Source: an archaeon (GTDB lineage Archaea; Asgardarchaeota; Thorarchaeia; Thorarchaeales; Thorarchaeaceae). From it: a DNA stretch of 32,000 nucleotides. Position 1 is the stretch's first letter. Each line of letters starts with the position of its first letter. Made by a program: the position numbers and the translations under genes. The stretch covers positions 1 through 32,000 of the forward strand of contig JAJRZD010000032.1 in assembly GCA_024275415.1 (NCBI GenBank). Reading direction: 5' to 3'. The notes beneath the pieces are model-generated. The model saw only the letters and a program-made list of their open reading frames with translations, was not told where the DNA came from and made no database searches. Of the stretch, positions 3,948 to 31,666 are shown one piece after another.

Positions 3948-4769
3948 ATGTCCGACACCAAGAGCCTGTATGTCTTCTGCCAGAAGTGTCATGAGAACAT
4001 CCTTGTGGATATCGAAACGGATGCAGTAGAGAAGATGGCAAGTGGTATCACAAGCGTGCTTTCTGTACATGGTAATCCCCAACATGCCGCACTCATCTAT
4101 GTGGACAAGAATTACATGGTGCGCGGGGTCGAGTACCCGTCATCCCTAGAGATAGAGAAGACTGTCACTACAGTGGTCGAGTCCACTAGGACATCGTATA
4201 GACAGGAATACCTGTCGTTCTCATCGCTTGTTGACCTGTTCGGGAAGAAACGAAAAGAGGCGGTATGGGCATTCTCAAGAATCATCACACAAGCATTTCT
4301 TGGCGGTTCGGTGTACATTGTACACGATAGCCCGACCACAGCCTCTACTGTGGTCGAAAGATTGCAGGAGTTTTTCACAGAAGATGTACACATTGCAGCG
4401 GTAACACATGACCAAGTAAAGAGTCTGTCACCTTCGGACTGTGTTTACTCCATCCAGACTGACGAGTTCATCTCAGAGGGCAATAGCATAACCACTAAGA
4501 CTCTTGAAAAGATGGTCGTCCAGTGCCTCAAGGATGAGAGCAGTTTCTTCAGGTTCAAGCTTGACTTGAGCAAGCTTGCCTTCGCGTACAGGAATGTCAA
4601 AGGGATATTGGCAGAACAAAAAGGCAAGATAAAAGATACCGAGATTGCAAAGAAAGCCAAGATTGAGGTGGAGAATGTGCCCTTTCTGCTCGAAATGGCA
4701 GAAAGCGAAGGAATGGATGTGTCCGGAGTCATTCACAACGGCCTGAGCAGGATCGCACGCGGGTTCTAG
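3948..4769 (+). CDS. Hypothetical protein: N-terminal CxxC...H...H putative Zn domain, central DENN-like segment, possible C-terminal HTH
   Basis: CQKC...VHGNPQH...IYVDKNYMVRG at the N-terminus. LVDLFG...IITQAFLGGSVYIVHDSP...VVERLQEFF resembles the cDENN core by eye (inference). Confidence 0.7.
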   Translation: MSDTKSLYVFCQKCHENILVDIETDAVEKMASGITSVLSVHGNPQHAALIYVDKNYMVRGVEYPSSLEIEKTVTTVVESTRTSYRQEYLSFSSLVDLFGKKRKEAVWAFSRIITQAFLGGSVYIVHDSPTTASTVVERLQEFFTEDVHIAAVTHDQVKSLSPSDCVYSIQTDEFISEGNSITTKTLEKMVVQCLKDESSFFRFKLDLSKLAFAYRNVKGILAEQKGKIKDTEIAKKAKIEVENVPFLLEMAESEGMDVSGVIHNGLSRIARGF

Positions 4770-4847
4770 GAACAAGCCACGCCCAGCCTAAAGCCATTTA
4801 TTGTGGCATCTCAATAGAAGAGTTCCAATGAAAGAGGAGGCCATAAT

Positions 4848-6239
4848 ATGTCCGATTATGATTTAGTGATTTCTGGAGGCACAGTGGTTACTGCGACAGA
4901 CATGTTTCAGGCTGATATCGGTGTGAAAGATGAGAAGATTACAGCGATAGGAAAGAATCTGCAAGTAGGTTCTGATACGACACTCATAGACGCAAAAGGG
5001 AAGTATGTTTTTCCTGGGGGTATTGATGTCCATGTCCATTTCCAATTGCCGTTCTCAGGAACCGTTTCTGCTGATGACTTCGAGAACGGGACGAAAGCGG
5101 CTGCCTGCGGCGGAGTCACAACAGTGCTTGATTTCGCAATACAGCAGAAAGGTTCCACCATAATGGATGCAGTCAAGGCGCGGCGTGCCGAAGCAGATCC
5201 CAACGTCTGCATAGACTATGGGCTTCATGCTGCGATTACTGATTGGAATGAGAGGACACAGGATGAGATCAAGCAGATCATCGACTATGGTATCCCCACA
5301 TTCAAGATGTTCATGATCTACAAGAACGAGGGGTGGATGGCTGATGATGGTATGCTGTTTCAAGCACTGGAAGAAACGAAAAAGCATGGCGGGCACATCG
5401 GTGTTCATGCTGAGAGCGTAGATATTCTGGACATGCTAATTGAACGTTATGCCAAGGAAAAGGAGAAGTGGGGGGCGTATGGGCATGCCCTGTCACGTCC
5501 CTGCTATACTGAAGAAGAAGCAATAATCCGAGCCATAAAATGGGCTGAGGTCACTGGTGGGAGATTGTATATAGTCCATATGTCAACTGGAGAAGGAGCA
5601 GATGCAGTTCGGGCAGGGAGAGCGAGAGGCGTCGATGTCTATGCGGAAACCTGTCCTCAATACCTCCTACTTGATGATGAGGTGTTCAAAGGTGAAAATG
5701 GACACCTCTATGCTACATGCCCACAAATCAAGAAACCTCACGACAGTGAACGCCTGTGGAAGGGGCTGCAGGAAGGCGATGTCCAAATAATCGCCACTGA
5801 CACTTGCACATTTACTACTGAGCAAAAGGCAGCTTGGAATGGCGACTTCCGGAAAATACCATTCGGGATGCCCGGAGTAGAAACAATGATTCCTCTCATA
5901 TACACTGAAGGAGTAGGAAAAAGGGGACTCTCGCTGAATCAATTCGTTGCCTTAGTAAGTACAAACCCTGCAAAGCTCTTTGGTATGTACCCCCAGAAAG
6001 GTGCGCTGGAAGTCGGTAGTGATGCTGACATCATGGTGTTCGATCCAGAAAGGGAAATCACAATCCGTGCATCAGACCTTCAGACGAATTGCGACTGGAA
6101 CCCGTTTGAGGGCTGGGAGTTGAAAGGATACCCGTTTGCAACAATATCACGGGGCAAGATTATCGCAACGGAAGGCAAATTCGTAGGCGAAGTCGGTCAC
6201 GGTAGATTCCTACAACGCAAGCCACACGGGAACTTGTGA
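4848..6239 (+). CDS. hydA: Dihydropyrimidinase (D-hydantoinase)
   Basis: PGGIDVHVHF (HxH), AAACGGVTT, FKMFM (carboxylated Lys), VHAES, IVHMST, ETCPQYL, ATDTC, GMPGVET, NPAKLFG, GSDADI. GAGGAGG ribosome-binding site just upstream. Confidence 0.93.
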   Translation: MSDYDLVISGGTVVTATDMFQADIGVKDEKITAIGKNLQVGSDTTLIDAKGKYVFPGGIDVHVHFQLPFSGTVSADDFENGTKAAACGGVTTVLDFAIQQKGSTIMDAVKARRAEADPNVCIDYGLHAAITDWNERTQDEIKQIIDYGIPTFKMFMIYKNEGWMADDGMLFQALEETKKHGGHIGVHAESVDILDMLIERYAKEKEKWGAYGHALSRPCYTEEEAIIRAIKWAEVTGGRLYIVHMSTGEGADAVRAGRARGVDVYAETCPQYLLLDDEVFKGENGHLYATCPQIKKPHDSERLWKGLQEGDVQIIATDTCTFTTEQKAAWNGDFRKIPFGMPGVETMIPLIYTEGVGKRGLSLNQFVALVSTNPAKLFGMYPQKGALEVGSDADIMVFDPEREITIRASDLQTNCDWNPFEGWELKGYPFATISRGKIIATEGKFVGEVGHGRFLQRKPHGNL

Positions 6240-6243
6240 TGAT

Positions 6244-6270
6244 AAATTGGTGCATTATTCCGACCAATTT
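6244..6270. terminator. Inverted repeat between convergent genes, possible bidirectional terminator
   Basis: AAATTGGT (6244-6251) / ACCAATTT (6263-6270): 8-bp stem, 11-nt loop, in the 36-bp gap between two stop codons. Confidence 0.35.
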
Positions 6271-6275
6271 GCAGT

Positions 6276-7097
6276 TTAGAAGATGACGGATGCCTTGGTG
6301 TCCCATCGGGTGTACAGCTTGGCATCCGGCTGGAGAATGAGATAGCGTGGATCTTCTTGCTCCTCTGATACCATACAGTCATCATTCCAAACCACGCCCA
6401 TCCCAAAGGCATCGTATTTCCATAGTCCCAATGCTAGTAACTCGAGCTTCTTATGGCGCTTGTCTGACTTGAATTCCTTCGCCAAGTCCGCGTACTTTCC
6501 TGACGCCATGTGGTTTGCCCCGTATATTTTCTTGAATGATACCTGATCTGGTTTCCATTTCGCCGATAGTTCATTCAGGATATATTCCAGCGAGCGATCA
6601 TCGAACCAATTCGTCATGGCAATGGAAAGCCTGAGTGTGAAGCCATTTGTGCGGATTGATTCACACAGGGCTATCGGGTCATATTGATATCTGTCAGGAA
6701 TTCTCATGATTTTGATAATGGCATCCTTCTCCAATGCAGGCAGTGACAGAGAGATCACACGTATGCCATAGTCATAGAGCAGGTCGAGTTTCTCATCGGT
6801 CAATCCAACACCACTTGTTTGTAGCTCCACATGGGCAAGCCTAGGAGTTACCTTGTTAATGAGTTCCATGATGTCACGGATGTATGTCATGTTGAGTGTG
6901 GGCTCTCCATGACTTGTGACCATCACTGACGCAACTCGGTCGGCCGCGTATCTGAGACGCCTTTCGACCTCCCTCTGCCAGAGGTCGTGGTCACGCCTCC
7001 ATAATGTCCTGAATTTCGTAGCATGTTGACGGTACACGCAGAATCCACAGTCATTCATACACCCCGCGGGCACCGTGACTTGAAGTGATCCAATCAT
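6276..7097 (-). CDS. Radical SAM protein, uncharacterised subfamily
   Basis: CMNDCGFC (CxxxCxxC, 7038-7061), TSHGEP, ELQTSG, ISLSL. No obvious SPASM cysteine cluster. Start placed at ATG 7097; the ORF track extends to TTG 7160. Confidence 0.85.
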   Translation of the reverse strand: MIGSLQVTVPAGCMNDCGFCVYRQHATKFRTLWRRDHDLWQREVERRLRYAADRVASVMVTSHGEPTLNMTYIRDIMELINKVTPRLAHVELQTSGVGLTDEKLDLLYDYGIRVISLSLPALEKDAIIKIMRIPDRYQYDPIALCESIRTNGFTLRLSIAMTNWFDDRSLEYILNELSAKWKPDQVSFKKIYGANHMASGKYADLAKEFKSDKRHKKLELLALGLWKYDAFGMGVVWNDDCMVSEEQEDPRYLILQPDAKLYTRWDTKASVIF

Positions 7098-7509
7098 CAG
7101 ATGTTCATCCACCAAGTCACAATAAACCGGTATTTGATTTAAATGTGTAACAAGTGCCAATATTTGCCAAGAGTCCTAGGTATTGGACAAATCCTCTGAT
7201 ATGATTCACGATGACATGTTTCTTAATCCACATCGGACAATCTAAAGGTTGCCAACAGCTGTACAAAACCTAGACAATCTTGACATCTTGTTGTGGGTGG
7301 TTACATAGTTTCGACGAAACACACTCGGTGAGGCCGTCCATGAGATGCGTAGGATCTCACAGAGTTCATCCAGTACCGTGTTCTGAGAGTACAACACTCG
7401 GGTGTCAAAGCTTGTATAACTCACAATGAACGGTGTGTGATTGTAGAACGGAGGGTCAAGCCATGGGGGAACCGAGTGTCGATTAACTAGACACCAGTAA
7501 TTGGCTATA

Positions 7510-15421: not shown

Positions 15422-18400
15422 TTAGGACGATCCGACTTTGATTGCTTTTGGAAGGCACTCCTGAAGGATAGTTCCCAGCTTCGACACGACTTCATCTACG
15501 TTCTCCTTTGTAAAACATAGAGGAGGTTTGATCTTCAGTACATTTCTCATTATGCCATCAACACTTAGGAGCACTCCAAGTTCCTTCATGCGCTTTACAA
15601 TGTGATGAGCTTCAGCCACTGCCGGAGGACGACCACCACCAGCTCTAATAAGCTCGACTCCAAGGAAAAGTCCGATACCTCGTACATCCCCGATGAGTGG
15701 ATACTTGGACTTCAACCTCAAGAGTTCCTGCTTGAAATATTCACCTACGATTCGGGCATTCTCCTGCAGGTTCTCATTGTCAATCACATCCAACACTGCC
15801 AGTCCTACGGCACAAGACACCGTATTCCCTCCAGTCGTACTAAAGAACTCCATCCCCGTGTCGAAAGACGCAGCTATCTCCGGTGTCGTCACTACAGCCC
15901 CCATAGGATGACCGTTGCCGATAGGTTTGCCTAATGTCACAATGTCAGGAACCACATCTTGTGTTTCAAAGCCCCAGAAATGTGTCCCCATGCGACCAAA
16001 GCCAATCTGAACTTCGTCTGCGATACACACACCACCTGCAGCGCGAACATGCTCGTAAACATGTTTCAGATACTCCGAGGGAAACACCACCTGCCCAGCA
16101 CAGCTCATGACAGGCTCACATATGAAACCTGCAACATTGTACCCGCGCGATTTCAGATTCAAAATGCCAGTCTTCACAGCCTCAGCATGCTTTTTGCCCA
16201 TCCCATCAACAGAGCTATATGGACTTCGATATACATCAGCATTCGGGACTATCTCCACATTCGGTGGGGGATCATGGCCTCCAGGGCCTGCATGTTTATA
16301 GTGGCTCAGACCAATGAGATTGTCGGTATTGCCATGATACCCGCCCTCAAGTGCAATGAACCCACTCCTTTTCGTATGTGCCTTTGCCAACCTGATTGCC
16401 AGCTCATTCGCCTCACTCCCACTATTGACCAAGAAGCATACCTTGAGAGGTTCAGGAAATAACGCACATAGTCGTTTAATGTATCTAGCCAAATTATCAT
16501 GCAAGTATCTGGTGTTTGTATATAGCACCTTGGCCTGATCCTGTATCGCCTTGACTACCATTGGATGGCAATGTCCCACAGTGGGGACATTGTTCACAAC
16601 ATCAAGGTATCTTCGCCCGTCTTCGTCATAGAGATACTGCATCCAACCTCTGACAATCTTCAATGGGCTTTTGTAAGAAACACTCAGGTTCCTTCCGAGA
16701 TGTTGGTTACGGATATCTAGAATTGCCTGCGCAGTCAAGGGTGCCGATGAGAAGATGTCGTGTGATACTCCAAGAAGTAGGTTCGGGTCAGGACACAGGT
16801 TTGTCCAGAGAGACCTTTGATTCGGGGCACAGACACCATAATAGTCCCCCTCGAAATCGAACATATCTAGAATGATCTGGAAATGCAGATGTGGCGGCCA
16901 TCCTCCGTTGCTAGGGTACTCACCAATCCGAGCGATCTCCTGACCTGTGGTAACAGAATCTCCTTCTTTCAGGGAATCCAAGGAATCCTCAGTAAGGTGT
17001 GCGTATAGAGTAAAGAACGAGAAACCCTCATCCGTTTGATGCTTCAATATGATCGTCGGACCGTTGTCGTAGGGCCGGTTGTTATTCTTGAGGGCATGCA
17101 CTTTCCCATCTACGGGCGCGTAGATTGGGGTACCACTAGCAGAGAAAAGATCCATTCCAAGATGTATGGTTCTCGATTCAAAGGTCGATGTCTTGTACTG
17201 TGCACCTACATACATTAATCGTGCCTCATTATATCGTCCAATCCCAACACTGGCATTAGAAGCCTCAATCTTCGTGACAATCACCCGATTGAAACTCTTG
17301 ATATCGTTCAACTCGTCAGGACTTGCATAGTCACGACTTCCTACACTCAAATCAACAACCACAGGTTTCTCAAGATCCAGAACAGATGCAAACTTACCAC
17401 GATTGCATTCCAGCCATTCTTCAATGTGAATACTCTCAGGGTGGGCAGGGAATCCGCACGCATCACGAAATGCATACCACGCAAGTCGGGGATGTATTCC
17501 GCGGAGTTTAGCGAGAGTCCTCCATGCAGGATCCTCAGAAACACGCAGATATTCGTTGTCAGGCTCATAAGAGGCCTGTGCTGCGGACATACATACACTT
17601 TGTATAAGACGAGCGCATACCAGCGGGAAGAGAAGCCTAATCTCGTCCTCCGAGAGTGGGAATACTTGGTGATAGCCAGAAACGATGCTAACAGCAGACA
17701 TCAATGGATCGGGCTTATCGAGGATGGCATACGCGATTCCGATGGCCAAGTCCGCGATTGTGTAGGTGAACACCATATCGCCAAAATCTATTATCCCAAA
17801 AGTACGTCGATCGTCTGACCACGGTTTCTCAATCAAGACATTATAGTCATTCGCATCATTATGAGCAACACTCTTTCTCAGATTCTTCGCATCAGGAAGG
17901 AATTCGCATTCATATAGGCGATAGAAGTGCTCTATGACCTCTCGTCGTTCAGAGTCTGAAATGAGCTCTAAGTGACGCTCCACTATTTGAGGAACGTTCT
18001 TCAAATCCCAAACGAAATCGCGATGTGCCGCATCATGCTCAAAATCTGAAAGAGCGGCACTGATATAACCGAGGAATCGACCGAAATCACGAAGAAGACA
18101 TGGACTATGGGGGAGCGCTTTTGCTAGAACAGTTCCATGAATATACGTGAGCAGGCGGACAAGACACTGCTTGCCATCCCTATCACTGACTCGGACAATC
18201 AACTCGCCGTTCCGAGAAGGGATGACACGAGGAACACTGAAGAGTGGTGACTTCTTAATGATGTGCTCCATTGCCTTGTTCTGAAGATCGAGTACATTCT
18301 TAGTGTCATGAGCAGAAGAAACCTTTAGCACATAGGAAGGAGTATCATTCACAGATATGAGGAAGTTCTGATCACGTTCGCTTGGGAGAGTAGAGAACTC

Positions 18401-18496
18401 ACCGAACACACCATAATGCTCTTGGGCAATTGTCCTTGCAAGAGCTACATCAACCACCGGGCGCCCTTTTGTCCTACTGGTCAATGGAAAAACCAC
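15422..18496 (-). CDS. Fusion: hydroxylysine-kinase-like phosphotransferase + M23 peptidase-like domain + class III aminotransferase/phospho-lyase
   Basis: Kinase: SERDQNF, VLKV, HNDANDYN, IIDFGD. M23: HLGMDLF, YAPVDG, LYAHL, PPHLHFQ. PLP domain: NSGSEAN, ADEVQIGFGRMG, TLGKP, GGNTVS. Confidence 0.9.
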   Translation of the reverse strand: MVFPLTSRTKGRPVVDVALARTIAQEHYGVFGEFSTLPSERDQNFLISVNDTPSYVLKVSSAHDTKNVLDLQNKAMEHIIKKSPLFSVPRVIPSRNGELIVRVSDRDGKQCLVRLLTYIHGTVLAKALPHSPCLLRDFGRFLGYISAALSDFEHDAAHRDFVWDLKNVPQIVERHLELISDSERREVIEHFYRLYECEFLPDAKNLRKSVAHNDANDYNVLIEKPWSDDRRTFGIIDFGDMVFTYTIADLAIGIAYAILDKPDPLMSAVSIVSGYHQVFPLSEDEIRLLFPLVCARLIQSVCMSAAQASYEPDNEYLRVSEDPAWRTLAKLRGIHPRLAWYAFRDACGFPAHPESIHIEEWLECNRGKFASVLDLEKPVVVDLSVGSRDYASPDELNDIKSFNRVIVTKIEASNASVGIGRYNEARLMYVGAQYKTSTFESRTIHLGMDLFSASGTPIYAPVDGKVHALKNNNRPYDNGPTIILKHQTDEGFSFFTLYAHLTEDSLDSLKEGDSVTTGQEIARIGEYPSNGGWPPHLHFQIILDMFDFEGDYYGVCAPNQRSLWTNLCPDPNLLLGVSHDIFSSAPLTAQAILDIRNQHLGRNLSVSYKSPLKIVRGWMQYLYDEDGRRYLDVVNNVPTVGHCHPMVVKAIQDQAKVLYTNTRYLHDNLARYIKRLCALFPEPLKVCFLVNSGSEANELAIRLAKAHTKRSGFIALEGGYHGNTDNLIGLSHYKHAGPGGHDPPPNVEIVPNADVYRSPYSSVDGMGKKHAEAVKTGILNLKSRGYNVAGFICEPVMSCAGQVVFPSEYLKHVYEHVRAAGGVCIADEVQIGFGRMGTHFWGFETQDVVPDIVTLGKPIGNGHPMGAVVTTPEIAASFDTGMEFFSTTGGNTVSCAVGLAVLDVIDNENLQENARIVGEYFKQELLRLKSKYPLIGDVRGIGLFLGVELIRAGGGRPPAVAEAHHIVKRMKELGVLLSVDGIMRNVLKIKPPLCFTKENVDEVVSKLGTILQECLPKAIKVGSS

Positions 18497-23105: not shown

Positions 23106-25070
23106 TTACGTCTTTGTGAAGAAAGAATCGGAGGACGGGAGGTAGATGCCTGTCAGCACCTTACGGAGCACGCAGAGAGCGGTCTTCTTTGAGATGGATC
23201 GGGACTTAGCAAACTCAGTCACGTTCAACGGTCCTGCTTCCGATATATGATCCTTAAGAAGTGCAAGCCATTGAGTGGAAATTACTACCCCACATTCCTC
23301 GAAAAAATTCTGATCATCTGTCAAGGTGTCCTCAACATCACTCTGAACTTCATCAAAGTCAAGCTCCAATTCCTCACAAAGAGAACTGATATCAACAATA
23401 CCATTACGATTCACGGATTCTGCAATCTTTCTGAGAAGCCAAGGTCTATTGACGTAGTTGTCATCCCATGTGCGATACGAATCAACCACAAGTGGCTGGA
23501 TTGTCTTCTCGATCTCGGCTGTGTCCAGACCTCTCTGGATTGCCAAATCGTAGGGACGAAGTACGCCCATGTCATGGAACTCCCTCTTCAGCTCGTTGAG
23601 AAGAGCATCCTTTGAAACCATCTTACCGTCTGCATCCAGCAGAGTATCGGACTCGATAGTAGCAACAATCGATTCGATGACACCGGGTTCGGTATCAAAC
23701 CTCTTTGCGATTTCCTCTGGATCCAAGAGCTCGCCCGTGCTAAGGGCTTCGGCCAGCCACCTGCGAACCCATGAGATGGAGAGATAATCACCAGAATGAG
23801 TCGAAACTGTCTTTAGACCGAATCTTTTCAGCAGTGCAGCGAGCTCGACCCTGCTCACCAACCAACGCTTCTCGAATTCGTCTGCATGAACAATCCCTGA
23901 ACTCTTTACCTCCTCTAAGATGTGATTGCGTAATGCACGGTAGGAAACAAACCTGCCATCTCGTACTTTGCGAACATCGGGGTGGTTGCTTAAGATCTTC
24001 TCAGCCAAGCGGGTGTCGATACCAATTCGCATGGCGGTTTCCTTGGGCTTGAGAATTCCTGCAAGCTCTATGTCGTCCAATATCTCTTGTTTCACTTGGT
24101 CAATAGTCATGACCGAGCCATCATTAGTGGTTATGAGTGTCAGTCCAAGTTTCTGAAGAACCTTCTTGAGTGTGTCTGTAGAGATTTTCAGCCGGTTTGC
24201 TTCGACATTGACATCGATATGACCCTGACTCTCAAGAAGAGCAGTCAAGTCCTCTTGAAGAAGATGCAGAGGGAGAAGCTTGTCGTCGAACCCCTCCACA
24301 AGATCCCACTTGTATAGTGTAACAACTTTCAAGATGTCATCAGGAGTCAGATCAAGTCGTGCTGCCTCATGCTCCAAGTCAAGAAACCCCATTTTTGAGA
24401 TACTTCTTTCGAGGGTTCCCAGTAGCCACTTCACTGAATATACTAGACCTGATGAGGACTGCCAGACATACCATCCCCATGACTTGATCAGGTGTACCAA
24501 CTCATCAACATCGACCCGCAACCGTTGTGCCTCGGCAACGACATCAGCCCGCCCTTGTAGTTCAAGAGATTCGCGGATGCGCTCTTTCAGTTCAGGCACT
24601 AGCAGGTAATCACCATCCTTAGTCCGTAAGATATCAAGTCCTTCCTGCTCACTTATGTCATGGACAATCTGCTCGATCTTGGCAGGGGCGACATCCCATC
24701 GGATAGCCTCCTTGTCGACGTGGACGATTGAATTATTGACCAGCGTGTCCTTTATCCTCTTGCGCAACCCGACTGAGGACACGACCGAGGTCTTGGAGTA
24801 ACTCAAGATTCCATTGCGAGTGCGCCCTACCAGCTCATAAAGGGTCTTCAAATCCATTCCCCTAGAATCTAGTAAATAAGATAGTTCCGAAAGGGCTATC
24901 GATGACCTTGAATTCAGGATATGGTCAATCTCTCCAATCAACTGATGCCTTCTACGGGCGATGAGCTTGAGATACCCCCAGAAGAACAAGACGGAAATCC
25001 CAATAGCAACGGCAAGTGGCCAGAGGGGATCCTCAAGTAAGACAAATTGTTCGAGTAGTATCTCTGCCAT
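23106..25070 (-). CDS. N-terminally membrane-anchored protein with about 11 tandem ~55-aa winged-helix-like repeats
   Basis: TM segment LWPLAVAIGISVLFFWGYL, then a repeated L-x3-G-x-[ILV]-x4-A-x-R-L-x-[LIV]...G-x-[YFV]-[LV]-S-x2-W-L pattern. Starts 10 bp after the ATPase stop. Confidence 0.85.
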   Translation of the reverse strand: MAEILLEQFVLLEDPLWPLAVAIGISVLFFWGYLKLIARRRHQLIGEIDHILNSRSSIALSELSYLLDSRGMDLKTLYELVGRTRNGILSYSKTSVVSSVGLRKRIKDTLVNNSIVHVDKEAIRWDVAPAKIEQIVHDISEQEGLDILRTKDGDYLLVPELKERIRESLELQGRADVVAEAQRLRVDVDELVHLIKSWGWYVWQSSSGLVYSVKWLLGTLERSISKMGFLDLEHEAARLDLTPDDILKVVTLYKWDLVEGFDDKLLPLHLLQEDLTALLESQGHIDVNVEANRLKISTDTLKKVLQKLGLTLITTNDGSVMTIDQVKQEILDDIELAGILKPKETAMRIGIDTRLAEKILSNHPDVRKVRDGRFVSYRALRNHILEEVKSSGIVHADEFEKRWLVSRVELAALLKRFGLKTVSTHSGDYLSISWVRRWLAEALSTGELLDPEEIAKRFDTEPGVIESIVATIESDTLLDADGKMVSKDALLNELKREFHDMGVLRPYDLAIQRGLDTAEIEKTIQPLVVDSYRTWDDNYVNRPWLLRKIAESVNRNGIVDISSLCEELELDFDEVQSDVEDTLTDDQNFFEECGVVISTQWLALLKDHISEAGPLNVTEFAKSRSISKKTALCVLRKVLTGIYLPSSDSFFTKT

Positions 25071-25080
25071 CGAACGTCGC

Positions 25081-28029
25081 CTATAGAGTTATTCCTTTCC
25101 TGCGACAATAAGCCTTGTAAACCTCCAGACCTATCAGCGCTGGCAAGGTTGCCATGAAGGCGATGAACCAATCAAAGTATGTCAGGGGTAAGAAATAGAA
25201 TTCAAAGCCGGGGAGTGCCCCGACGAGGATCTCTTGGGCTAGTGGATTGTACATCAGCAGCAGAAATGCCATTATAATAAGTCCCAGCAACACAACGTAT
25301 CGGATGATTCCAGGCTCTGAAACAGACTTGTGGAAGGGTAGATTTACCCTTCGAATGATCAAGACCAATGTGCTTTCGAATATCAGTATCATGGTAAGCA
25401 GCATCGTTGTTGCTTTTGCTATCTGCAAATCCCAGCCAAATGGAAGTTGGGCTTCTTGACTATAATAGCCAGTCAAATTCTCAGGTACCAGCGCTAGTGG
25501 GTCACCCGGCTGAGCATTGAATGCAAGTGCGTACACTATCGAAGTGCCAATGACCATTAGAAAAACACCAACACCCATGAGTACAGCAAGCCGTCTCGTG
25601 ATAATGTCCTCACTATCTCGCGGCTTCTCCTCCATCGCCCGCGGTGAAGTCTTATCAAAGACAAGTGCCAATCCAGGGAACGAATGGGTTGTTGCCACGA
25701 GAAGAAGGCTTTGCCAAGAAGTCAGCATGTTGAATCCGGCAGGAAGGAGAAACAGAGCTCCGAAGAATATGATGGACTCAAAGAGATTGATGGCGATGTA
25801 GAAGAAGACCATCATCCGGATCTTGTTGAAGAGACCTCGACCCTCGTGTACCCCTGTGACGATAGACGCAAAACTATCATCCGTGATGACAATATCTGCT
25901 GCTTCCTTTGCTACGTCAGTGCCTGTTATTCCCATCGCAATCCCGGCATCACTCATAGCTAGGGCAAGAGCATCGTTCACGCCATCCCCAGTCATTGCCA
26001 CGACCTTGTTCTGATCCTGATATCGTTCGACAATCAGCTGCTTGTGCTCAGGGTTTACTCTGGCAAAGACATTCACGCGCTGGAAGTCATCCTCGGAAAT
26101 CTCAGCAATCTGGGAACCTTCGACAGCAAGCGAGCCGGGTCTGTAAATGTTCAGGTTACTGGCTATTGTCTTTGCTGTGGCGGCTGCATCCCCAGTTATC
26201 ATAATAACATTGATGCCAGCACTGTGGCACTCGCAAACCGCTTCCTTGACACCCTCTCGCGGTGGATCCACAATACATGCGAAACCTAGGTAGACGAGGT
26301 CTCGTTCAACTTGGTCACGTGCGTCAGGGACTGATGGCAGAACGTCCATCGTACGGTATGCAAGGGAAATGACTCTATAGCCTTTCGCTGCGAACCCATT
26401 GGTGAGGTCGGCAATCTGACCGCGGACATCATCCGTCAACAATGTCAGCGTTCCCGAATTGTTGTAATGAGTGCACCGAGGAAGCATGACTTCCGTTGCC
26501 CCTTTGGTAAAGACGATGTACTTTGAGTCGTGATTACAAATCTTCGACATGCGTTTGTATTGAGAGTCGAAGGGAAATTCCATCTCGACCTGATAGTTAT
26601 CCTTCACTTCATTCTCGTTCATTCCACTCTTTCGAAATAGGGTCAAAAGAGCTGCATCTGTAGGATCGCCAACAGCCATATAGACTGGCCCTTGGTCGGG
26701 GATGTCCTTTGTGATGATGGCAGAGTCATTATTGATTCCGCCACATAGTAGCAACAGTCGCAAGTTGTCATATGACTCGACGCCCAGCAATGGTGATGTG
26801 TTTTCAGTGTCCAGATTGTCGTATGTGACATCATCACCTAATCTCAGGATCTCTCCATCAGGTTCGTAACCATTGCCCGTGACAGTATAAAGGTGATTCA
26901 TATCCCAGATGTATTTCACAGTCATCTCATTTTTAGTCATGGTGCCAGTCTTATCCGAGCAGATGACACTGACACGCCCCAAGCTCTCAACAGCAGAGAG
27001 GTCTCTGATGATGACACCTTGCTTTGCCATCGCAAGAACGCCTGTAAGGAGGACTATCGTGGTAAGCAACGGGATGTTGATGGGCATTATCGTCATTGCT
27101 TTAGTGATTCCCGCCGTTATCGTGTCAATAATCTCATCGAAGCTCTCGACTCCAGGGGAACCAGTGAAGAAGGGGCCGAGAAAGGTGGCCCATGAGATGG
27201 AAACGAGCATCAGAAAGACTGCTGCAATCCCAAGGAGTTTCGCCAAGAGGTTCACTTTCTTTCTGAGGGGGATATCGCCAGTATTAAGCTCCTCGAGTGT
27301 GCCCTGTATCTTGCCAATCTCTGTCGCTCCGCCTGTTGTAGTTGCCACCACTTTTGCGGTTCCTGTGGCGATATACGTACCTAGGAATACCATGTTGTGC
27401 ATGTCTGTCAGGGGTGCATCTGCATCAACCACCACATGAGCGTCCTTTGTGACGGGGACGCTCTCACCAGTCAAAGATGCCTCATTTGCGGCCAGATTCG
27501 AACATTGGATGATCCGACCGTCAACGGGGATTCGGTCACCCTGTTCGAGCTTAAGGATGTCGCCAGGCACAATATCTGCTGGATCGACTTTCATTTCTTC
27601 ACCATCGCGGATGACCCGTGCATCACCAGCAGAGAGCTTCTCCAAAGCTTCGAGCTTTTTCTGAGCCCTGAATTGCTGGAAGATAGCAACGATACAGTTC
27701 ACGGCCACAATGACCAGCCAGAACATAGCCTGTTCGAATTGAGAATTCTCCGTTGGGAACATAAAGGCGAGGAAAACAAGTGCAAATGAGCTCAGCAGAT
27801 AGATGGTAATCAACCAGTTCAGTATTGGGGCAAGGTAAACCTTCCAGAATGAGCCTTTGACCTTTGGAATGACATTCGGTCCATATCTGTGAAGCCTTTG
27901 TTCGACCTCGTCCTGAGAAAGACCATAATCGGGGTTCACTGACAAGACCTGCAGGACTTGATCCGGGGTCATAGCGTGATACTGTTGAGTCTTTGGTTCG
28001 AGTTCGATGGTGGATTGCTGCTCGGACAA
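25081..28029 (-). CDS. P-type ATPase, P2A (SERCA-like) scaffold with non-canonical ion-binding residues
   Basis: YGPN, LTGES, CSDKTGT (26941-26955), FPFDSQYKRM, TKGA, DPPR, MITGD, FARVNP, MTGDGVNDA, ITDDSF. TM4 reads PINIP. TTG 28029 start preferred (GAGGT upstream); the ORF track starts at 28104. Confidence 0.93.
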   Translation of the reverse strand: MSEQQSTIELEPKTQQYHAMTPDQVLQVLSVNPDYGLSQDEVEQRLHRYGPNVIPKVKGSFWKVYLAPILNWLITIYLLSSFALVFLAFMFPTENSQFEQAMFWLVIVAVNCIVAIFQQFRAQKKLEALEKLSAGDARVIRDGEEMKVDPADIVPGDILKLEQGDRIPVDGRIIQCSNLAANEASLTGESVPVTKDAHVVVDADAPLTDMHNMVFLGTYIATGTAKVVATTTGGATEIGKIQGTLEELNTGDIPLRKKVNLLAKLLGIAAVFLMLVSISWATFLGPFFTGSPGVESFDEIIDTITAGITKAMTIMPINIPLLTTIVLLTGVLAMAKQGVIIRDLSAVESLGRVSVICSDKTGTMTKNEMTVKYIWDMNHLYTVTGNGYEPDGEILRLGDDVTYDNLDTENTSPLLGVESYDNLRLLLLCGGINNDSAIITKDIPDQGPVYMAVGDPTDAALLTLFRKSGMNENEVKDNYQVEMEFPFDSQYKRMSKICNHDSKYIVFTKGATEVMLPRCTHYNNSGTLTLLTDDVRGQIADLTNGFAAKGYRVISLAYRTMDVLPSVPDARDQVERDLVYLGFACIVDPPREGVKEAVCECHSAGINVIMITGDAAATAKTIASNLNIYRPGSLAVEGSQIAEISEDDFQRVNVFARVNPEHKQLIVERYQDQNKVVAMTGDGVNDALALAMSDAGIAMGITGTDVAKEAADIVITDDSFASIVTGVHEGRGLFNKIRMMVFFYIAINLFESIIFFGALFLLPAGFNMLTSWQSLLLVATTHSFPGLALVFDKTSPRAMEEKPRDSEDIITRRLAVLMGVGVFLMVIGTSIVYALAFNAQPGDPLALVPENLTGYYSQEAQLPFGWDLQIAKATTMLLTMILIFESTLVLIIRRVNLPFHKSVSEPGIIRYVVLLGLIIMAFLLLMYNPLAQEILVGALPGFEFYFLPLTYFDWFIAFMATLPALIGLEVYKAYCRRKGITL

Positions 28030-28224
28030 TGTCAGAACCTCTTCATAGGTGCATTGGATGAAAGGACTTGCCATTGATAAATGAACTTGTAATCTATAGT
28101 CCATCCCACCGCTTTCATTTGTATTTGGTAAGCTCCATCCCTTTTGAAGATTATTGATACCATTTTCGACAGGTTCTTGTGCTTTTGCTATTGGTCAAGT
28201 AGTACCTTAACAAGAGGTGTCAAG

Positions 28225-30198
28225 ATGGCTATCTATTATGATATTCCACCAGAGCAAACGAAGTCCAGCGGTAGCAGGAAAATAGTAGCAGTGATCATCA
28301 TCATCCTGATTCTCCTATCGACGGGAGTCATGGCCCTTTTCCAATTCATTCCCTCATTTGGGTCATTTTTTAACAGTGGTTCGGTTCGTGTAGCAGTCAT
28401 CGATTCAGGACTTGACCAAGACGTTTCTATTTCAGGGAGGGTGGTTGCAGAACAAAGTTTCATACTGCCACAATATGGGTACAACATCACAGACTCGTCC
28501 ACATCAGATTCAAACCCTGATGATGGTGCTGGAAATAACGTAAGACATGGCACTATGGTGACAAGAGCCCTGCTCCAAAATAGTGACAGTGCCCAGATTG
28601 TGGTTGCGAAAGTCATCGATTCATCGGGCCACGCTACTGCCAGTGCATTGGTAGCTGCAATATACTGGGCGGTGGAACAGAATAGCACAGTAATCAACAT
28701 GAGCCTCGGTACAAGTCCGTCCTTCGGCGATCCCTTACAAGATGCAGTAGAGTATGCATTCTCGAAAGGCGTCATCGTCGTTTCAGCTGCAGGAAATGAG
28801 GGGGAGAACGGCATAGCAGGGAATAGCATCAGCTCACCAAGTGTCTTCTCGAAGGTCATCTCCGTAGCTGCATTGGACGAGAAAGGGGAACCTGCGTATT
28901 ATTCAAGTTGGGGACCAACTGCCGATAGGAGCATGAAGCCAGACATCGCGATAGAGGGCTTCTTCGAGACCTCCAGTGCGATCTATTATGGAACGAGTTT
29001 TGCGGCACCAAGGGTCTCAGCCTATGTGGCCGAACTTGTGGCGTATTGCCAGAGCAAAGGGTACGAATATACACCGGGATTGATAATGGCAGCCTTATTC
29101 GAGGGAGCGACACCTCTGAACTATCCAGAATACATTGTTGGTGCTGGAAAGGCAAACTTGCAACAGTCAATGAACATCATAGATGCAGCATCAATCCAAG
29201 ATGGCCTTCCACGTCTCATCAGTGTGGACACAAGTGGGTTGCCTCTTGACTTCGAAACTCTATTCCAAGGCGATAACTACACATTCAACGTTGAGATAAC
29301 CACATCGACAGTATCAGAGGTCACAATCTCACTCATTGACATTGCTGAGGGAATCGTCGAGATACCAAGTCCGGTGAACATCAATCAAGTCGGAACCGTT
29401 CCTCTCTCGATCCATGTCCCGATGAGCTCGTCGCCAATCAGCGGGATGGTGTTTATCGAGGATGCATACTCGAATGCCACAGTGAGGGTTGAAATCACTC
29501 CTCAAGTAGCGGTAGCAAGGATAGCGTTCGATATCACGCACACCCCTTGGAATATAGATACTACCTATGGACAATTCAAGGAGCTTTACATCCAACTCAC
29601 AGAACAGGACATATCTGTAACGGAGATTAGGGACAGGAACCTTCTGACGGCAGAGTACCTCTCTCTCTTTGATGCCGTATTCATGCTAGACCCAAGTGCA
29701 TGGGACAGAAATGACACAGACTACAATAATCCAACGGCATTCTCCATTCCTTTCACTCCTGATGAGATTGATGCTTATGAGGAGTATTTCCTCGATGGCG
29801 GTGGAATCTTCATAACTGCACTGGATAACAGTAGCTTGGACATTGAATCGTTGAACGGGTTCCTAGAATGGACTGGCGCATCTGTTGCATATGATTCTGT
29901 CCCAGGAACTATTGGTGTGGTTGAGATAACTGACGTGGTCGCACATCCGATAACAGTAGGTGTTAGCTCCTTTGACTATCTTGGAGCGTCCATTTTGACT
30001 AATTCAAGTTACACCACACTTGGAAGATTCAGTGGGAAGACTGTCCTAGCAGCCTTTGAGGGAACATCTGGTGGACGGATCGTCATCACAGGAACCAACT
30101 TCTTCATCGATAACTGGGGAATGAAGGGGATGTACGGATCACCTGATGATGATGTTCTCTCACTACGAATCGGTCTATGGTTAACTGGACTCATGTGA
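28225..30198 (+). CDS. Membrane-anchored subtilisin-like (S8) serine protease with a C-terminal GIFT/GATase-like domain
   Basis: Triad VAVIDSG (D), RHGTMV (H), GTSFAAP (S); oxyanion SAAGN; N-terminal TM helix; C-terminal RIAFDITH...FDAVFMLDP...FTPDEID.YEEYFLDGGGIFI...GRIVITG. GAGGTG before ATG 28225. Confidence 0.9.
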   Translation: MAIYYDIPPEQTKSSGSRKIVAVIIIILILLSTGVMALFQFIPSFGSFFNSGSVRVAVIDSGLDQDVSISGRVVAEQSFILPQYGYNITDSSTSDSNPDDGAGNNVRHGTMVTRALLQNSDSAQIVVAKVIDSSGHATASALVAAIYWAVEQNSTVINMSLGTSPSFGDPLQDAVEYAFSKGVIVVSAAGNEGENGIAGNSISSPSVFSKVISVAALDEKGEPAYYSSWGPTADRSMKPDIAIEGFFETSSAIYYGTSFAAPRVSAYVAELVAYCQSKGYEYTPGLIMAALFEGATPLNYPEYIVGAGKANLQQSMNIIDAASIQDGLPRLISVDTSGLPLDFETLFQGDNYTFNVEITTSTVSEVTISLIDIAEGIVEIPSPVNINQVGTVPLSIHVPMSSSPISGMVFIEDAYSNATVRVEITPQVAVARIAFDITHTPWNIDTTYGQFKELYIQLTEQDISVTEIRDRNLLTAEYLSLFDAVFMLDPSAWDRNDTDYNNPTAFSIPFTPDEIDAYEEYFLDGGGIFITALDNSSLDIESLNGFLEWTGASVAYDSVPGTIGVVEITDVVAHPITVGVSSFDYLGASILTNSSYTTLGRFSGKTVLAAFEGTSGGRIVITGTNFFIDNWGMKGMYGSPDDDVLSLRIGLWLTGLM

Positions 30199-30225: not shown

Positions 30226-30451
30226 TGCTGGATTTAGGAAGCTTAAAAGGGAGGATGTATATTGTTAAGGTACAAAAAACGAGTCGAAGTCGGATAAAAA
30301 TCTGAGTCCGGATTCGTCCGGATTCTGGTTAGCTGGTGGTCAGGCAATCTGTTCACCAGCTATCCGCACATTCATTCTGCTTGGTTATAATCATCATATT
30401 TACATAGCACATACCTTTGTCATCTTGCTCAACAAAGGAGATTGCATTGAC

Positions 30452-31666
30452 TTGGCCAAGATAACAAAGGCGTCCTACGGTGTTTTGATTGCATGTACAA
30501 TCTCTCACTTCATGAATCATCTCTATACAGGTGCGCTCTCTCCTTTCTTGCCCCTTATCCGTGATGAGCTGGGACTTACGCTGACTGAGGCAGGTGTCCT
30601 CACAAGTGCAGTCATCGTCACAATGACCTCTGCCCACCTAGTTGTGGGATATATGGGTGATAAAGGATGGCGGGATATTTTGATCTCGGTGAGCGTCATA
30701 CTATCTGCTGTTGTGATGCTAATAGAGAGTTTCGCCACAAGTTTTTTGTTCCTAGTAGGAACACAGGTAGCATTGGGTTTTGCGGTGTCAGGATATCATC
30801 CCTCTGCATTCCCAGCAATCTCAAAGAAGTTCCCCCGAAATGCAAGAGCCAAGGCCATTGGGTTCAATGCTGCTGGGGGTCTTGTGGGAATGGCAATCAC
30901 ACCATTCCTCGGAGTATTTCTCTTGGTAGTCCTTGGTGGTTGGAGAAACCCGCTATTTACACTGGGCTTGATGGGGGTTGCATTGTTCATCCCGATCCTG
31001 TTGTTGATGAGGTATGCAGACAACCAAGCGAAAAATGATTTCGAGAACGGGGAGGTGGAGGACGAAGGCCCACAAGTTGGATGGACACGGAATTATTTCA
31101 TAGCAATCATATTTATGGGTCTCAGAAGCATCCCGTTCCGTTCGACGACATTGATGATGCCGATATACCTTGTGGACAGTTACGGATACGAGCCAGTCTG
31201 GGCGGGCTCACTGACCGCAATCATGTTGATGGCAGGTCTGTTTGGAGAATTAGTGTCTGCACCCATATCAGACCGGTCAGGAAAACGCGTACCGTACATG
31301 TTCCTCTCTGTCGTCAGCATGGTGCCCTTGTTCCTAATGCTGAACTTGGCACTTGAGCCACTACCGCTACTTCTTGTCCTCATAGGTATCGGATTCATCT
31401 ATTTCTTTGGAGTACCTCCAGGTCAGGCATTCGAAACTGAGGTGACGCCCACTGAGAAACAAGGACTGGCATTCGGATTGCTATTCTCAGTAGGTGCGAT
31501 TCCAGGGTCTCTTGCACCAGCCATCTTTGGCTGGATTGGCGATGTGTTCGGACTGGCATCCTCAATTCTGTTCCTGGTGATAGTGTGTGCGATTGCGTCC
31601 GTCGTAGCCCTGTTCCTGAAAGACACACCACTTGAGCATCATGTGGTTATTGCAATGGAGGAGTAG
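30452..31666 (+). CDS. Major facilitator superfamily transporter
   Basis: About 12 hydrophobic segments; GYMGDKG and PISDRSGKR (motif A variants); GYHP; RAKAIG. Start at TTG 30452 after AGGAG; 30425 is also possible. Confidence 0.9.
   Translation: MAKITKASYGVLIACTISHFMNHLYTGALSPFLPLIRDELGLTLTEAGVLTSAVIVTMTSAHLVVGYMGDKGWRDILISVSVILSAVVMLIESFATSFLFLVGTQVALGFAVSGYHPSAFPAISKKFPRNARAKAIGFNAAGGLVGMAITPFLGVFLLVVLGGWRNPLFTLGLMGVALFIPILLLMRYADNQAKNDFENGEVEDEGPQVGWTRNYFIAIIFMGLRSIPFRSTTLMMPIYLVDSYGYEPVWAGSLTAIMLMAGLFGELVSAPISDRSGKRVPYMFLSVVSMVPLFLMLNLALEPLPLLLVLIGIGFIYFFGVPPGQAFETEVTPTEKQGLAFGLLFSVGAIPGSLAPAIFGWIGDVFGLASSILFLVIVCAIASVVALFLKDTPLEHHVVIAMEE

Follow-up and report, generated by a model that had tools for sequence, protein, structure and literature searches.

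The ion site in the membrane is what defines a subfamily of P-type ATPases, and a site that has been rebuilt across a whole lineage usually denotes a new specificity or coupling rule. The closest described relatives of the pump considered here are P2A pumps (LMCA1, a Listeria Ca2+-ATPase, SPCA1/PMR1 and SERCA), whose site II ligands are a Glu in transmembrane helix M4 and an Asn and an Asp in M6 (SERCA E309, N796 and D800), and whose site I ligands include an Asn and a Glu in M5 and a Glu in M8. Further points of comparison are provided by the P3A H+-pumps (AHA2/Pma1 and Asgard members), the P1B-4 pumps (sCoaT, CtpD) and the P4 flippases. In P4 pumps, the Ile of the M4 motif PISL occupies the position of the Glu in PEGL, a position that is likewise Ile or Val in AHA2 and other P3 ATPases; further, P4 pumps carry the dephosphorylation motif DGET and need a CDC50 partner (PMC4937031). 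In the P1B-4 pump sCoaT, His657 of the M6 motif HEGxT is functionally essential and has been proposed to coordinate the metal and/or to supply a built-in counter-ion (PMC8880997). The locus analyzed here lies in a 32,000-nucleotide stretch of Thorarchaeaceae DNA (hereafter the window; contig JAJRZD010000032.1), in which a P-type ATPase gene, P0001, occupies positions 25081..28104 of the minus strand, as do all of its features given below. As judged from sequence comparison, P0001 belongs to a distinct and conserved Asgard P-type lineage with a rebuilt ion site; no description of this Asgard PINIP/His clade was found in the literature, and the 2023 review by Palmgren makes no mention of it.

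The rebuilt membrane ion site

The M4 motif of P0001 reads PINIP (amino acids 341-345; 27070..27084), which places Ile342 at the position of SERCA E309 and Asn343 at that of G310. In M6, which contains THSFPG, His807 (25684..25686) stands at the position of D800 and Val803 (25696..25698) at that of N796. In the HMMER alignment to LMCA1, AVAAIPEALSS lies opposite AMTIMPINIPL and LFINLVNDSLPAIAL lies opposite LLLVATTHSFPGLAL, and in the MAFFT alignment to 108 PEGLP-type pumps the columns of Ile342, Val803 and His807 are occupied by Glu (100%), Asn (97%) and Asp (91%), respectively. Because HMMER and MAFFT pair identical columns, the substitutions E309>Ile, N796>Val and D800>His are real. The spacing from the M4 Pro to the phosphorylated Asp is 43 residues, the same as in SERCA. 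As E309, N796 and D800 are all replaced, a SERCA-type Ca2+ site II is predicted to be unable to form in P0001. The P2A site I ligands of M5 and M8 are present, namely Asn773 and Glu776 (25777..25788), at the positions of SERCA N768 and E771, and Glu910 (25375..25377), at the position of E908. Changes are also found toward the cytoplasmic entry funnel, where M2 carries Gln144 (27673..27675) in place of the Glu of the PEGLP group, neutralizing an entry-funnel acid, and M1 carries Pro93 and Asn96 (27817..27828) where PEGLP pumps have Gln and Asp. Gln144 presumably corresponds to SERCA E109, and Pro93 and Asn96 to SERCA Q56 and D59.

PINIP, His807, N773 and E776 occur in every member of a set of 121 orthologues (61-100% identity to P0001), and 120 of these also have E910. 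HMMER, run exhaustively against 1.84 billion cluster representatives (50%-identity clusters), returned 89,096 matches; among the best 150 clusters, approximately 45 carry a relaxed form of the signature (M4 P-[I/V/F/W/L]-N-x-[P/V], M5 N..E, M6 His-x-x-Pro and M8 Glu) at 36-64% identity and 500-1284 bits, and the remaining clusters all carry PEGLP together with N-x-x-T-D. When 30 full-length clade members were compared residue by residue with the 108 PEGLP pumps, the strict discriminators were Asn343 (Gly in PEGLP pumps), His807 and Arg377. Clade-wide, M4 reads P (100%), I, F or V (73, 10 and 7%), N (93%), I, L or F, and P (83%), and M5 retains N773 in 90% and E776 in 100% of members. Position 807 is His in the entire clade and Asp, Glu or Asn (91, 5 and 5%) in PEGLP pumps, position 803 is Tyr, Phe or Val where the PEGLP pumps have Asn, and position 910 is Glu in 97% of the clade and Gln or Glu (57 and 35%) in PEGLP pumps. 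The acidic residues of the entry funnel likewise appear to be neutralized in the clade: position 144 is Gln in 87% of members vs. Glu in 98% of PEGLP pumps, and position 96 is Asn in 80%, the PEGLP pumps having Asp, Asn or Ser (45, 21 and 18%), such that Asp is there a plurality only. Position 93, which is Pro in 87% of the clade vs. Gln in 93% of PEGLP pumps, is not an acid and changes alongside the funnel acids.

An earlier note on this DNA had proposed, from the letters alone, an active pump with intact catalytic motifs that cannot bind Ca2+ canonically. Its positions for PINIP (27070-27084), for His807 (25684-25686) and for Glu910, at which its span starts (25375-25377), are exact, its three substitutions are borne out by the two alignments, and the TGES, DKTGT, TGD and GDGVND motifs that it listed were all located. 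The loss of canonical Ca2+ binding is likewise what the replacement of all three site II ligands predicts. Its statement that the M5 Asn/Glu, the M8 Glu and T799 are kept holds for the M5 and M8 residues, and for T799 in close orthologues but not in the wider clade. It had further raised the prospect that the substitutions might be unique to this assembly; they are instead conserved, with PINIP and His in 121/121 orthologues, and the signature defines a deep clade. An assembly artefact or a lone mutant is ruled out by the same invariance.

Apart from the ion site, P0001 resembles a P2A pump, the group to which it shows the highest similarity in sequence and fold (LMCA1, E 6e-121). The open reading frame list and its translation give a product of 1007 amino acids from the first ATG. 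Translation probably begins at Met11 (28074), because the database copy P0002 has 997 amino acids and the AlphaFold 2 model shows residues 1-35 as disordered (predicted local distance difference test, pLDDT, below 50). The Pfam domains Cation_ATPase_N, E1-E2_ATPase, Cation_ATPase, Hydrolase and Cation_ATPase_C make up a complete five-domain architecture of the P2/P3 type. The A-domain dephosphorylation loop is TGES (amino acids 212-215; 27460..27471) and not the P4-type DGET, and the DKTGT phosphorylation motif with Asp384 (26941..26955) and the P-domain hinge motif GDGVND at amino acid 706 (25972..25989) are both invariant in a 56-row alignment; a motif scan further located the nucleotide motif KGA at amino acids 534-536 and TGD at amino acid 637. 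Membership of the P-type superfamily is indicated by 266 bits on the generic model TIGR01494, against a cutoff of 62.3, together with the full set of catalytic motifs, all of them invariant in the 56-row alignment. The AlphaFold 2 model, built from the 56-row alignment, has a mean pLDDT of 86.2, a predicted template modelling score of 0.80 and ten transmembrane helices, with helix breaks in M4 at 340-342 and in M6 at 807-808, the unwound spots that form the ion sites of SERCA. Its best Foldseek matches are SERCA in E2 states (TM-score 0.76-0.78 over approximately 1030 aligned columns, 28-29% identity), followed by SPCA1, LMCA1 and the H,K- and Na,K-ATPases. M5-M10 alone, compared with the PDB, matched LMCA1 only (E 0.002), the sequence being very divergent and this comparison uninformative. 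Ten transmembrane helices, A, N and P domains, TGES, DKTGT, GDGVNDA, the M5 N..E pair, the M8 Glu and the unwound M4 and M6 are all held in common with P2A pumps, and P0001 is predicted to be an intact, catalytically competent ATP-driven pump. Unlike P2A pumps, the clade has E309>Ile, G310>Asn, N796>Val/Tyr/Phe, D800>His and neutralized funnel acids.

Position among the P-type subfamilies

The sole model passed by P0001 was the generic TIGR01494, and every subfamily equivalog failed. The highest subfamily scores were obtained with the PMR1-type model TIGR01522 (472 bits; cutoff 798.3), the SERCA model TIGR01116 (424 bits; cutoff 703.4), the P2D model (412 bits; cutoff 645.05) and the PMCA model (402 bits; cutoff 507.05), followed by the P2C model (344 bits; cutoff 946.1), the P3A model TIGR01647 (327 bits; cutoff 615.5), the P3B model (313 bits; cutoff 610.75), the P5 model (222 bits; cutoff 618.25) and the P4 model TIGR01652 (98.7 bits; cutoff 431.25); P1B models gave only 170-240 bits. 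Other clade members score 421-514 bits on the P2A equivalogs, where PEGLP pumps score 670-823, and true Asgard P3A pumps score 660-1077 on the P3A model.

Phylogenetic trees were built with genuine Asgard P3A and P3B pumps added and with the host genome's own P1B pumps as outgroup and root; the sampling was without eukaryotic P2A, P4 and P5 sequences, and the PEGLP sample included three Na,K-like pumps. The clade is monophyletic in three trees, apart from all sampled PEGLP (P2A/P2C-like) pumps, from P3A and from P3B. Its support was 93 (Shimodaira-Hasegawa-like) with 99 on the other side in FastTree (144 rows), 90 by the Shimodaira-Hasegawa-like approximate likelihood ratio test (SH-aLRT) with 97 on the other side in IQ-TREE under LG+C20 with posterior mean site frequencies (76 rows by 879 columns), and 100 (SH-aLRT) with 97 on the other side in IQ-TREE under LG+G4 (42 rows). 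A tree joining the clade with P3 was not rejected (p of the approximately unbiased test 0.60; 42-row LG+G4), and the trees allow more than one branching order of the clade, P2 and P3. The clade thus appears to be a deep lineage beside the P2 and P3 pumps rather than one inside P2A, and P0001 differs from P2A pumps in falling under the equivalog cutoffs, in its separate clade in the three trees and in having a PEGLP paralogue in the same genome.

Like P3A pumps, P0001 has few site carboxylates and an M4 frame of P-x-x-x-P in which a hydrophobic residue takes the place of E309. It differs from them in the His at the M6 Asp position, in its low score on the P3A model and in having fewer C-terminal features in common. 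The M6 Asp of AHA2, D684, is the proton acceptor and the equivalent of D800. With P1B-4 pumps, the M6 His is the only analogous feature, as these have another topology and lineage, SPC in M4, HEGxT in M6 and no P2-type M7-M10 bundle.

A different kinship had been proposed in the earlier note, which took Ile at the E309 position as the hallmark of P4 flippases and as possibly informative on how these arose from ion pumps. This pointer is not supported, since a hydrophobic residue at that position is also the rule in P3, the Asgard P3A pumps reading IPVALP. In the comparison of PISL with PINIP, Ile alone is common to both, and Ser-Leu is replaced by Asn-Ile-Pro. On the P4 model, clade members score 86-114 bits vs. 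75-103 for ordinary PEGLP pumps, and on the P5 model they score 198-240 bits vs. 249-274. Because these scores do not set it apart from ordinary Ca2+ pumps, the clade shows no special affinity to P4 or P5. P4 flippases, which need CDC50, differ from P0001 in having DGET and in lacking a conserved buried Glu/Glu/His; the buried E776 (100%), H807 (100%) and E910 (97%) of the clade indicate a putative ion site and not a lipid groove. No match to CDC50 (PF03381) was found in the host genome (92.9% complete), and the control genomes were also without a match, leaving this search with no positive control. Flippase ancestry was rejected because of the scores on the P4 model, the presence of TGES, the charged residues buried in the membrane and the like residue of P3A pumps at the E309 position.

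Proposed transport mechanism and substrate

Taken together, these observations allow a model for P0001 to be proposed. Because site II is gone, the funnel carboxylates are lost and one polar cluster is left, P0001 is probably a single-site cation pump operating on a rebuilt site at the position of site I, with a substrate other than canonical Ca2+. The buried polar cluster would comprise Glu776 and Asn773 of M5, Glu910 of M8, His807 of M6 and the new Asn343 of M4, and one small cation may be moved through it per cycle. Ile342 could act as a hydrophobic gate, by analogy with the Ile or Val of P3A H+-pumps, and Asn343 as a new M4 ligand, and His807 may either coordinate the cation or serve as a built-in counter-ion, by analogy with His657 of P1B-4. 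As for the substrate, a net loss of four acidic residues would favour one of low charge, and H+ or a monovalent cation is the tentative first candidate. The His/Glu/Asn chemistry would equally suit Mn2+, Fe2+ or Zn2+, and a transition metal of this kind is the second, somewhat less likely candidate, with the remaining share of the probability falling to other substrates.

Several observations weigh against this model or one of its variants. No conserved neighbour that would hint at a substrate was present at seven loci (Thor, 'Loki', 'Kor', Promethearchaeota and other metagenome-assembled genomes, MAGs). The equivalent of T799, T806, is retained among close orthologues only and varies across the wider clade (Thr 27%, Val 27%, Ala 17%), and the site is therefore not simply a preserved site I. 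For a H+ substrate, it is problematic that genuine P3A pumps co-occur with clade members (several Asgard genomes, among them G110, G122, G052 and G060) and that the proton-acceptor Asp of P3A is the very residue exchanged for His. For a transition metal, the genome already contains six P1B pumps, and four carboxylates have been lost and none gained. Genomic context and phyletic pattern do not discriminate between H+ or monovalent substrates on the one hand and metals on the other.

A more far-reaching proposal is that the PxNxP/His pumps form a previously undefined P-type subfamily of the rank of P2 and P3, born in or before the Asgard ancestor, whose Glu-Glu-His-Asn site would transport something outside the known substrates of P2 and P3 pumps, such as a transition metal, ammonium or an amine; this we consider unlikely. 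In a bolder and speculative version, a class confined to eukaryotes (P5 or P4) would have its prokaryotic stem in the PxNxP/His lineage. With its Glu/Glu/His/Asn site on a scaffold like that of SERCA, the pump would constitute a natural experiment on the roles of charge, gating residue and built-in counter-ions in selectivity. The pump is also tractable, since it consists of one subunit, has no obligatory partner and occurs in a host that has been cultured.

An alternate scenario retains Ca2+ (or Mg2+) as the substrate, with one divalent ion bound in the site I-like pocket by E776, E910, N773, N343 and water, and with His807 replacing the missing counter-charge. The top-scoring models and structures (PMR1-type, SERCA, LMCA1) are all Ca2+ pumps, and both site I glutamates and the Asn are retained. 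However, P0001 lies far under every Ca2+-ATPase equivalog cutoff. The single-Ca2+ pumps LMCA1, SPCA and PMCA use site II, which is precisely the site destroyed here; further, D800, which is common to both SERCA sites, is His in the whole clade, and the funnel acids are neutralized. That a canonical PEGLP/NLATD paralogue is present in the same genome, and that two matches are found in most Asgard genomes, speaks for a separate function. These considerations make a Ca2+ pump improbable. The annotations point the other way: in databases the pump is named a cation- or Ca2+-transporting ATPase, the JGI name is Ca2+-transporting ATPase, and Asgard orthologues of a putative Ca2+-ATPase (TC 3.A.3.2.21), an entry that may correspond to the PINIP clade or to the PEGLP paralogue, have been listed and taken as support for Asgard Ca2+ signalling in at least one study (PMC7997004). 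If the pump meant there is a clade member and does not carry Ca2+, the signalling inference would need to be revisited.

A still less probable substrate is an organic cation or a lipid-like molecule, P0001 then being a P5B-like polyamine or amine pump or a flippase-like pump. It is possible to cite for this the hydrophobic residue at the E309 position, as in the PISL of P4, and the aromatic residues enriched near the M6 His (Tyr or Phe at 801 and 803, F809, W797) and in M1 and M5, which together with two acids would suit an amine. However, ordinary Ca2+ pumps do as well on the P4 and P5 models, TGES stands in place of DGET, the P5 double-proline motif PP(E/A)LP is absent, the CDC50 search (lacking its positive control) gave no match in the genome, and, as regards lipid, a conserved buried Glu/Glu/His is the opposite of the uncharged P4 groove. 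Finally, that P0001 is a non-transporting ATPase, cycling without substrate as a sensor or regulator, or a decaying paralogue, is barely credible. The lack of an assignable substrate and the strong divergence of the membrane half (M5-M10 matching only LMCA1) would suit it, but within the membrane the highest conservation across 36-100% identity is that of the M4, M5, M6 and M8 site residues, the catalytic motifs are intact and the gene is found in roughly nine of ten sampled Asgard genomes, all of which argues for strong purifying selection on the binding site.

Distribution, paralogues and gene neighbourhood

The closest orthologues of P0001 in the database search carry Thorarchaeota names, and the source names of clade members comprise Thor-, Loki-, Hod-, Odin- and Helarchaeota, Promethearchaeota and one 'Korarchaeota' MAG. 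Matches at E<=1e-100 occur in 273 of 301 Asgard species genomes, mostly two per genome, and many Asgard genomes have one match above 800 bits, a score reached by clade members only. The DNA pattern for MPINIPLLT was found in at least 119 stretches of GTDB species genomes; among the 80 matches listed, approximately 74 belong to true clade genes, in which the motif precedes DKTG by 44 residues, and these include Heimdall- and Hermodarchaeota, Atabeyarchaeia, Ca. Asgardarchaeum, Promethearchaeum sp. and Ca. Lokiarchaeum ossiferum, which is in culture and has a complete genome (L053). The clade appears to be large, old and almost purely Asgard-archaeal. Full-length PINIP/His pumps were also observed in records with non-Asgard titles, namely Nitrososphaeria (L029/L039), Bathyarchaeia (L065) and Aerophobetes (L035), and in a complete Dehalogenimonas sp. 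chromosome (CP139473.1; L099). The identity of these pumps to Asgard copies (Ca. Asgardarchaeum, Odin, Lokiarchaeum) is 54-57%, which suggests horizontal transfer out of Asgard archaea, or mis-binning.

The host genome (3.5 Mb in 127 contigs) encodes eight P-type ATPases: six P1B-like pumps with CPC, APC, CPH or YPC in M4, one canonical pump reading AIPEGLPAVV and NLATDGFPA, and P0001. Given this canonical paralogue, P0001 supplements the ordinary Ca2+-type pump rather than replacing it. Neither P3A nor P3B is present in the host genome; elsewhere, bona fide P3A pumps above the cutoff occur in 30 of 201 Asgard genomes and MgtA-type P3B pumps in 18 of 151 (examples being G041, G058, G174 and G034). 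In one Asgard genome, two clade members lie in tandem (G025:C86:1220-4123 and 4610-7483), scoring 885 and 847 bits to P0001; a local duplication is indicated. Among the PEGLP pumps, a variant group (P0171, P0225, P0249, P0258 and P0271) retains PEGLP and has Asn at the D800 position (NLVTNGLPA or NIVTNGLQD), another rebuilt site that lies on a branch separate from the clade; three of these five are without the M5 Glu (SSNAGL).

In the window, the pump gene is followed after 10 nucleotides by a gene for a 654-amino-acid protein (23106..25070, minus strand) with one N-terminal transmembrane helix, many winged-helix-like repeats of approximately 55 residues and a weak Pfam match to E3_UFM1_ligase (E 1.3e-11). 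This protein also lies next to the pump in the Thorarchaeota-type loci L013 and L014, with a 20-nucleotide overlap or 18 nucleotides away, and is absent at L015/L016 and in the distant clade members examined. It could be a lineage-specific partner or reflect plain synteny, and it is not claimed as part of the pump. On the other side, a subtilase (Peptidase_S8, E 2.5e-33; 28144-30198, plus strand) is divergent from the pump across a gap of approximately 40-120 bp, an arrangement that recurs in L013 and L014, where an MFS transporter follows, as in the window (30425-31666). The local Thorarchaeota synteny consists of the subtilase, the pump, the winged-helix-repeat protein and panB, and nothing else is common to the seven loci. 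Farther away in the window, 15422-18496 (minus strand) encodes a 1024-amino-acid fusion of an APH-type phosphotransferase, a Peptidase_M23 domain and a class-III aminotransferase, which matches NCBIfam NF004799, named 'hypothetical protein', at 1209 bits and is conserved near the pump in L013.

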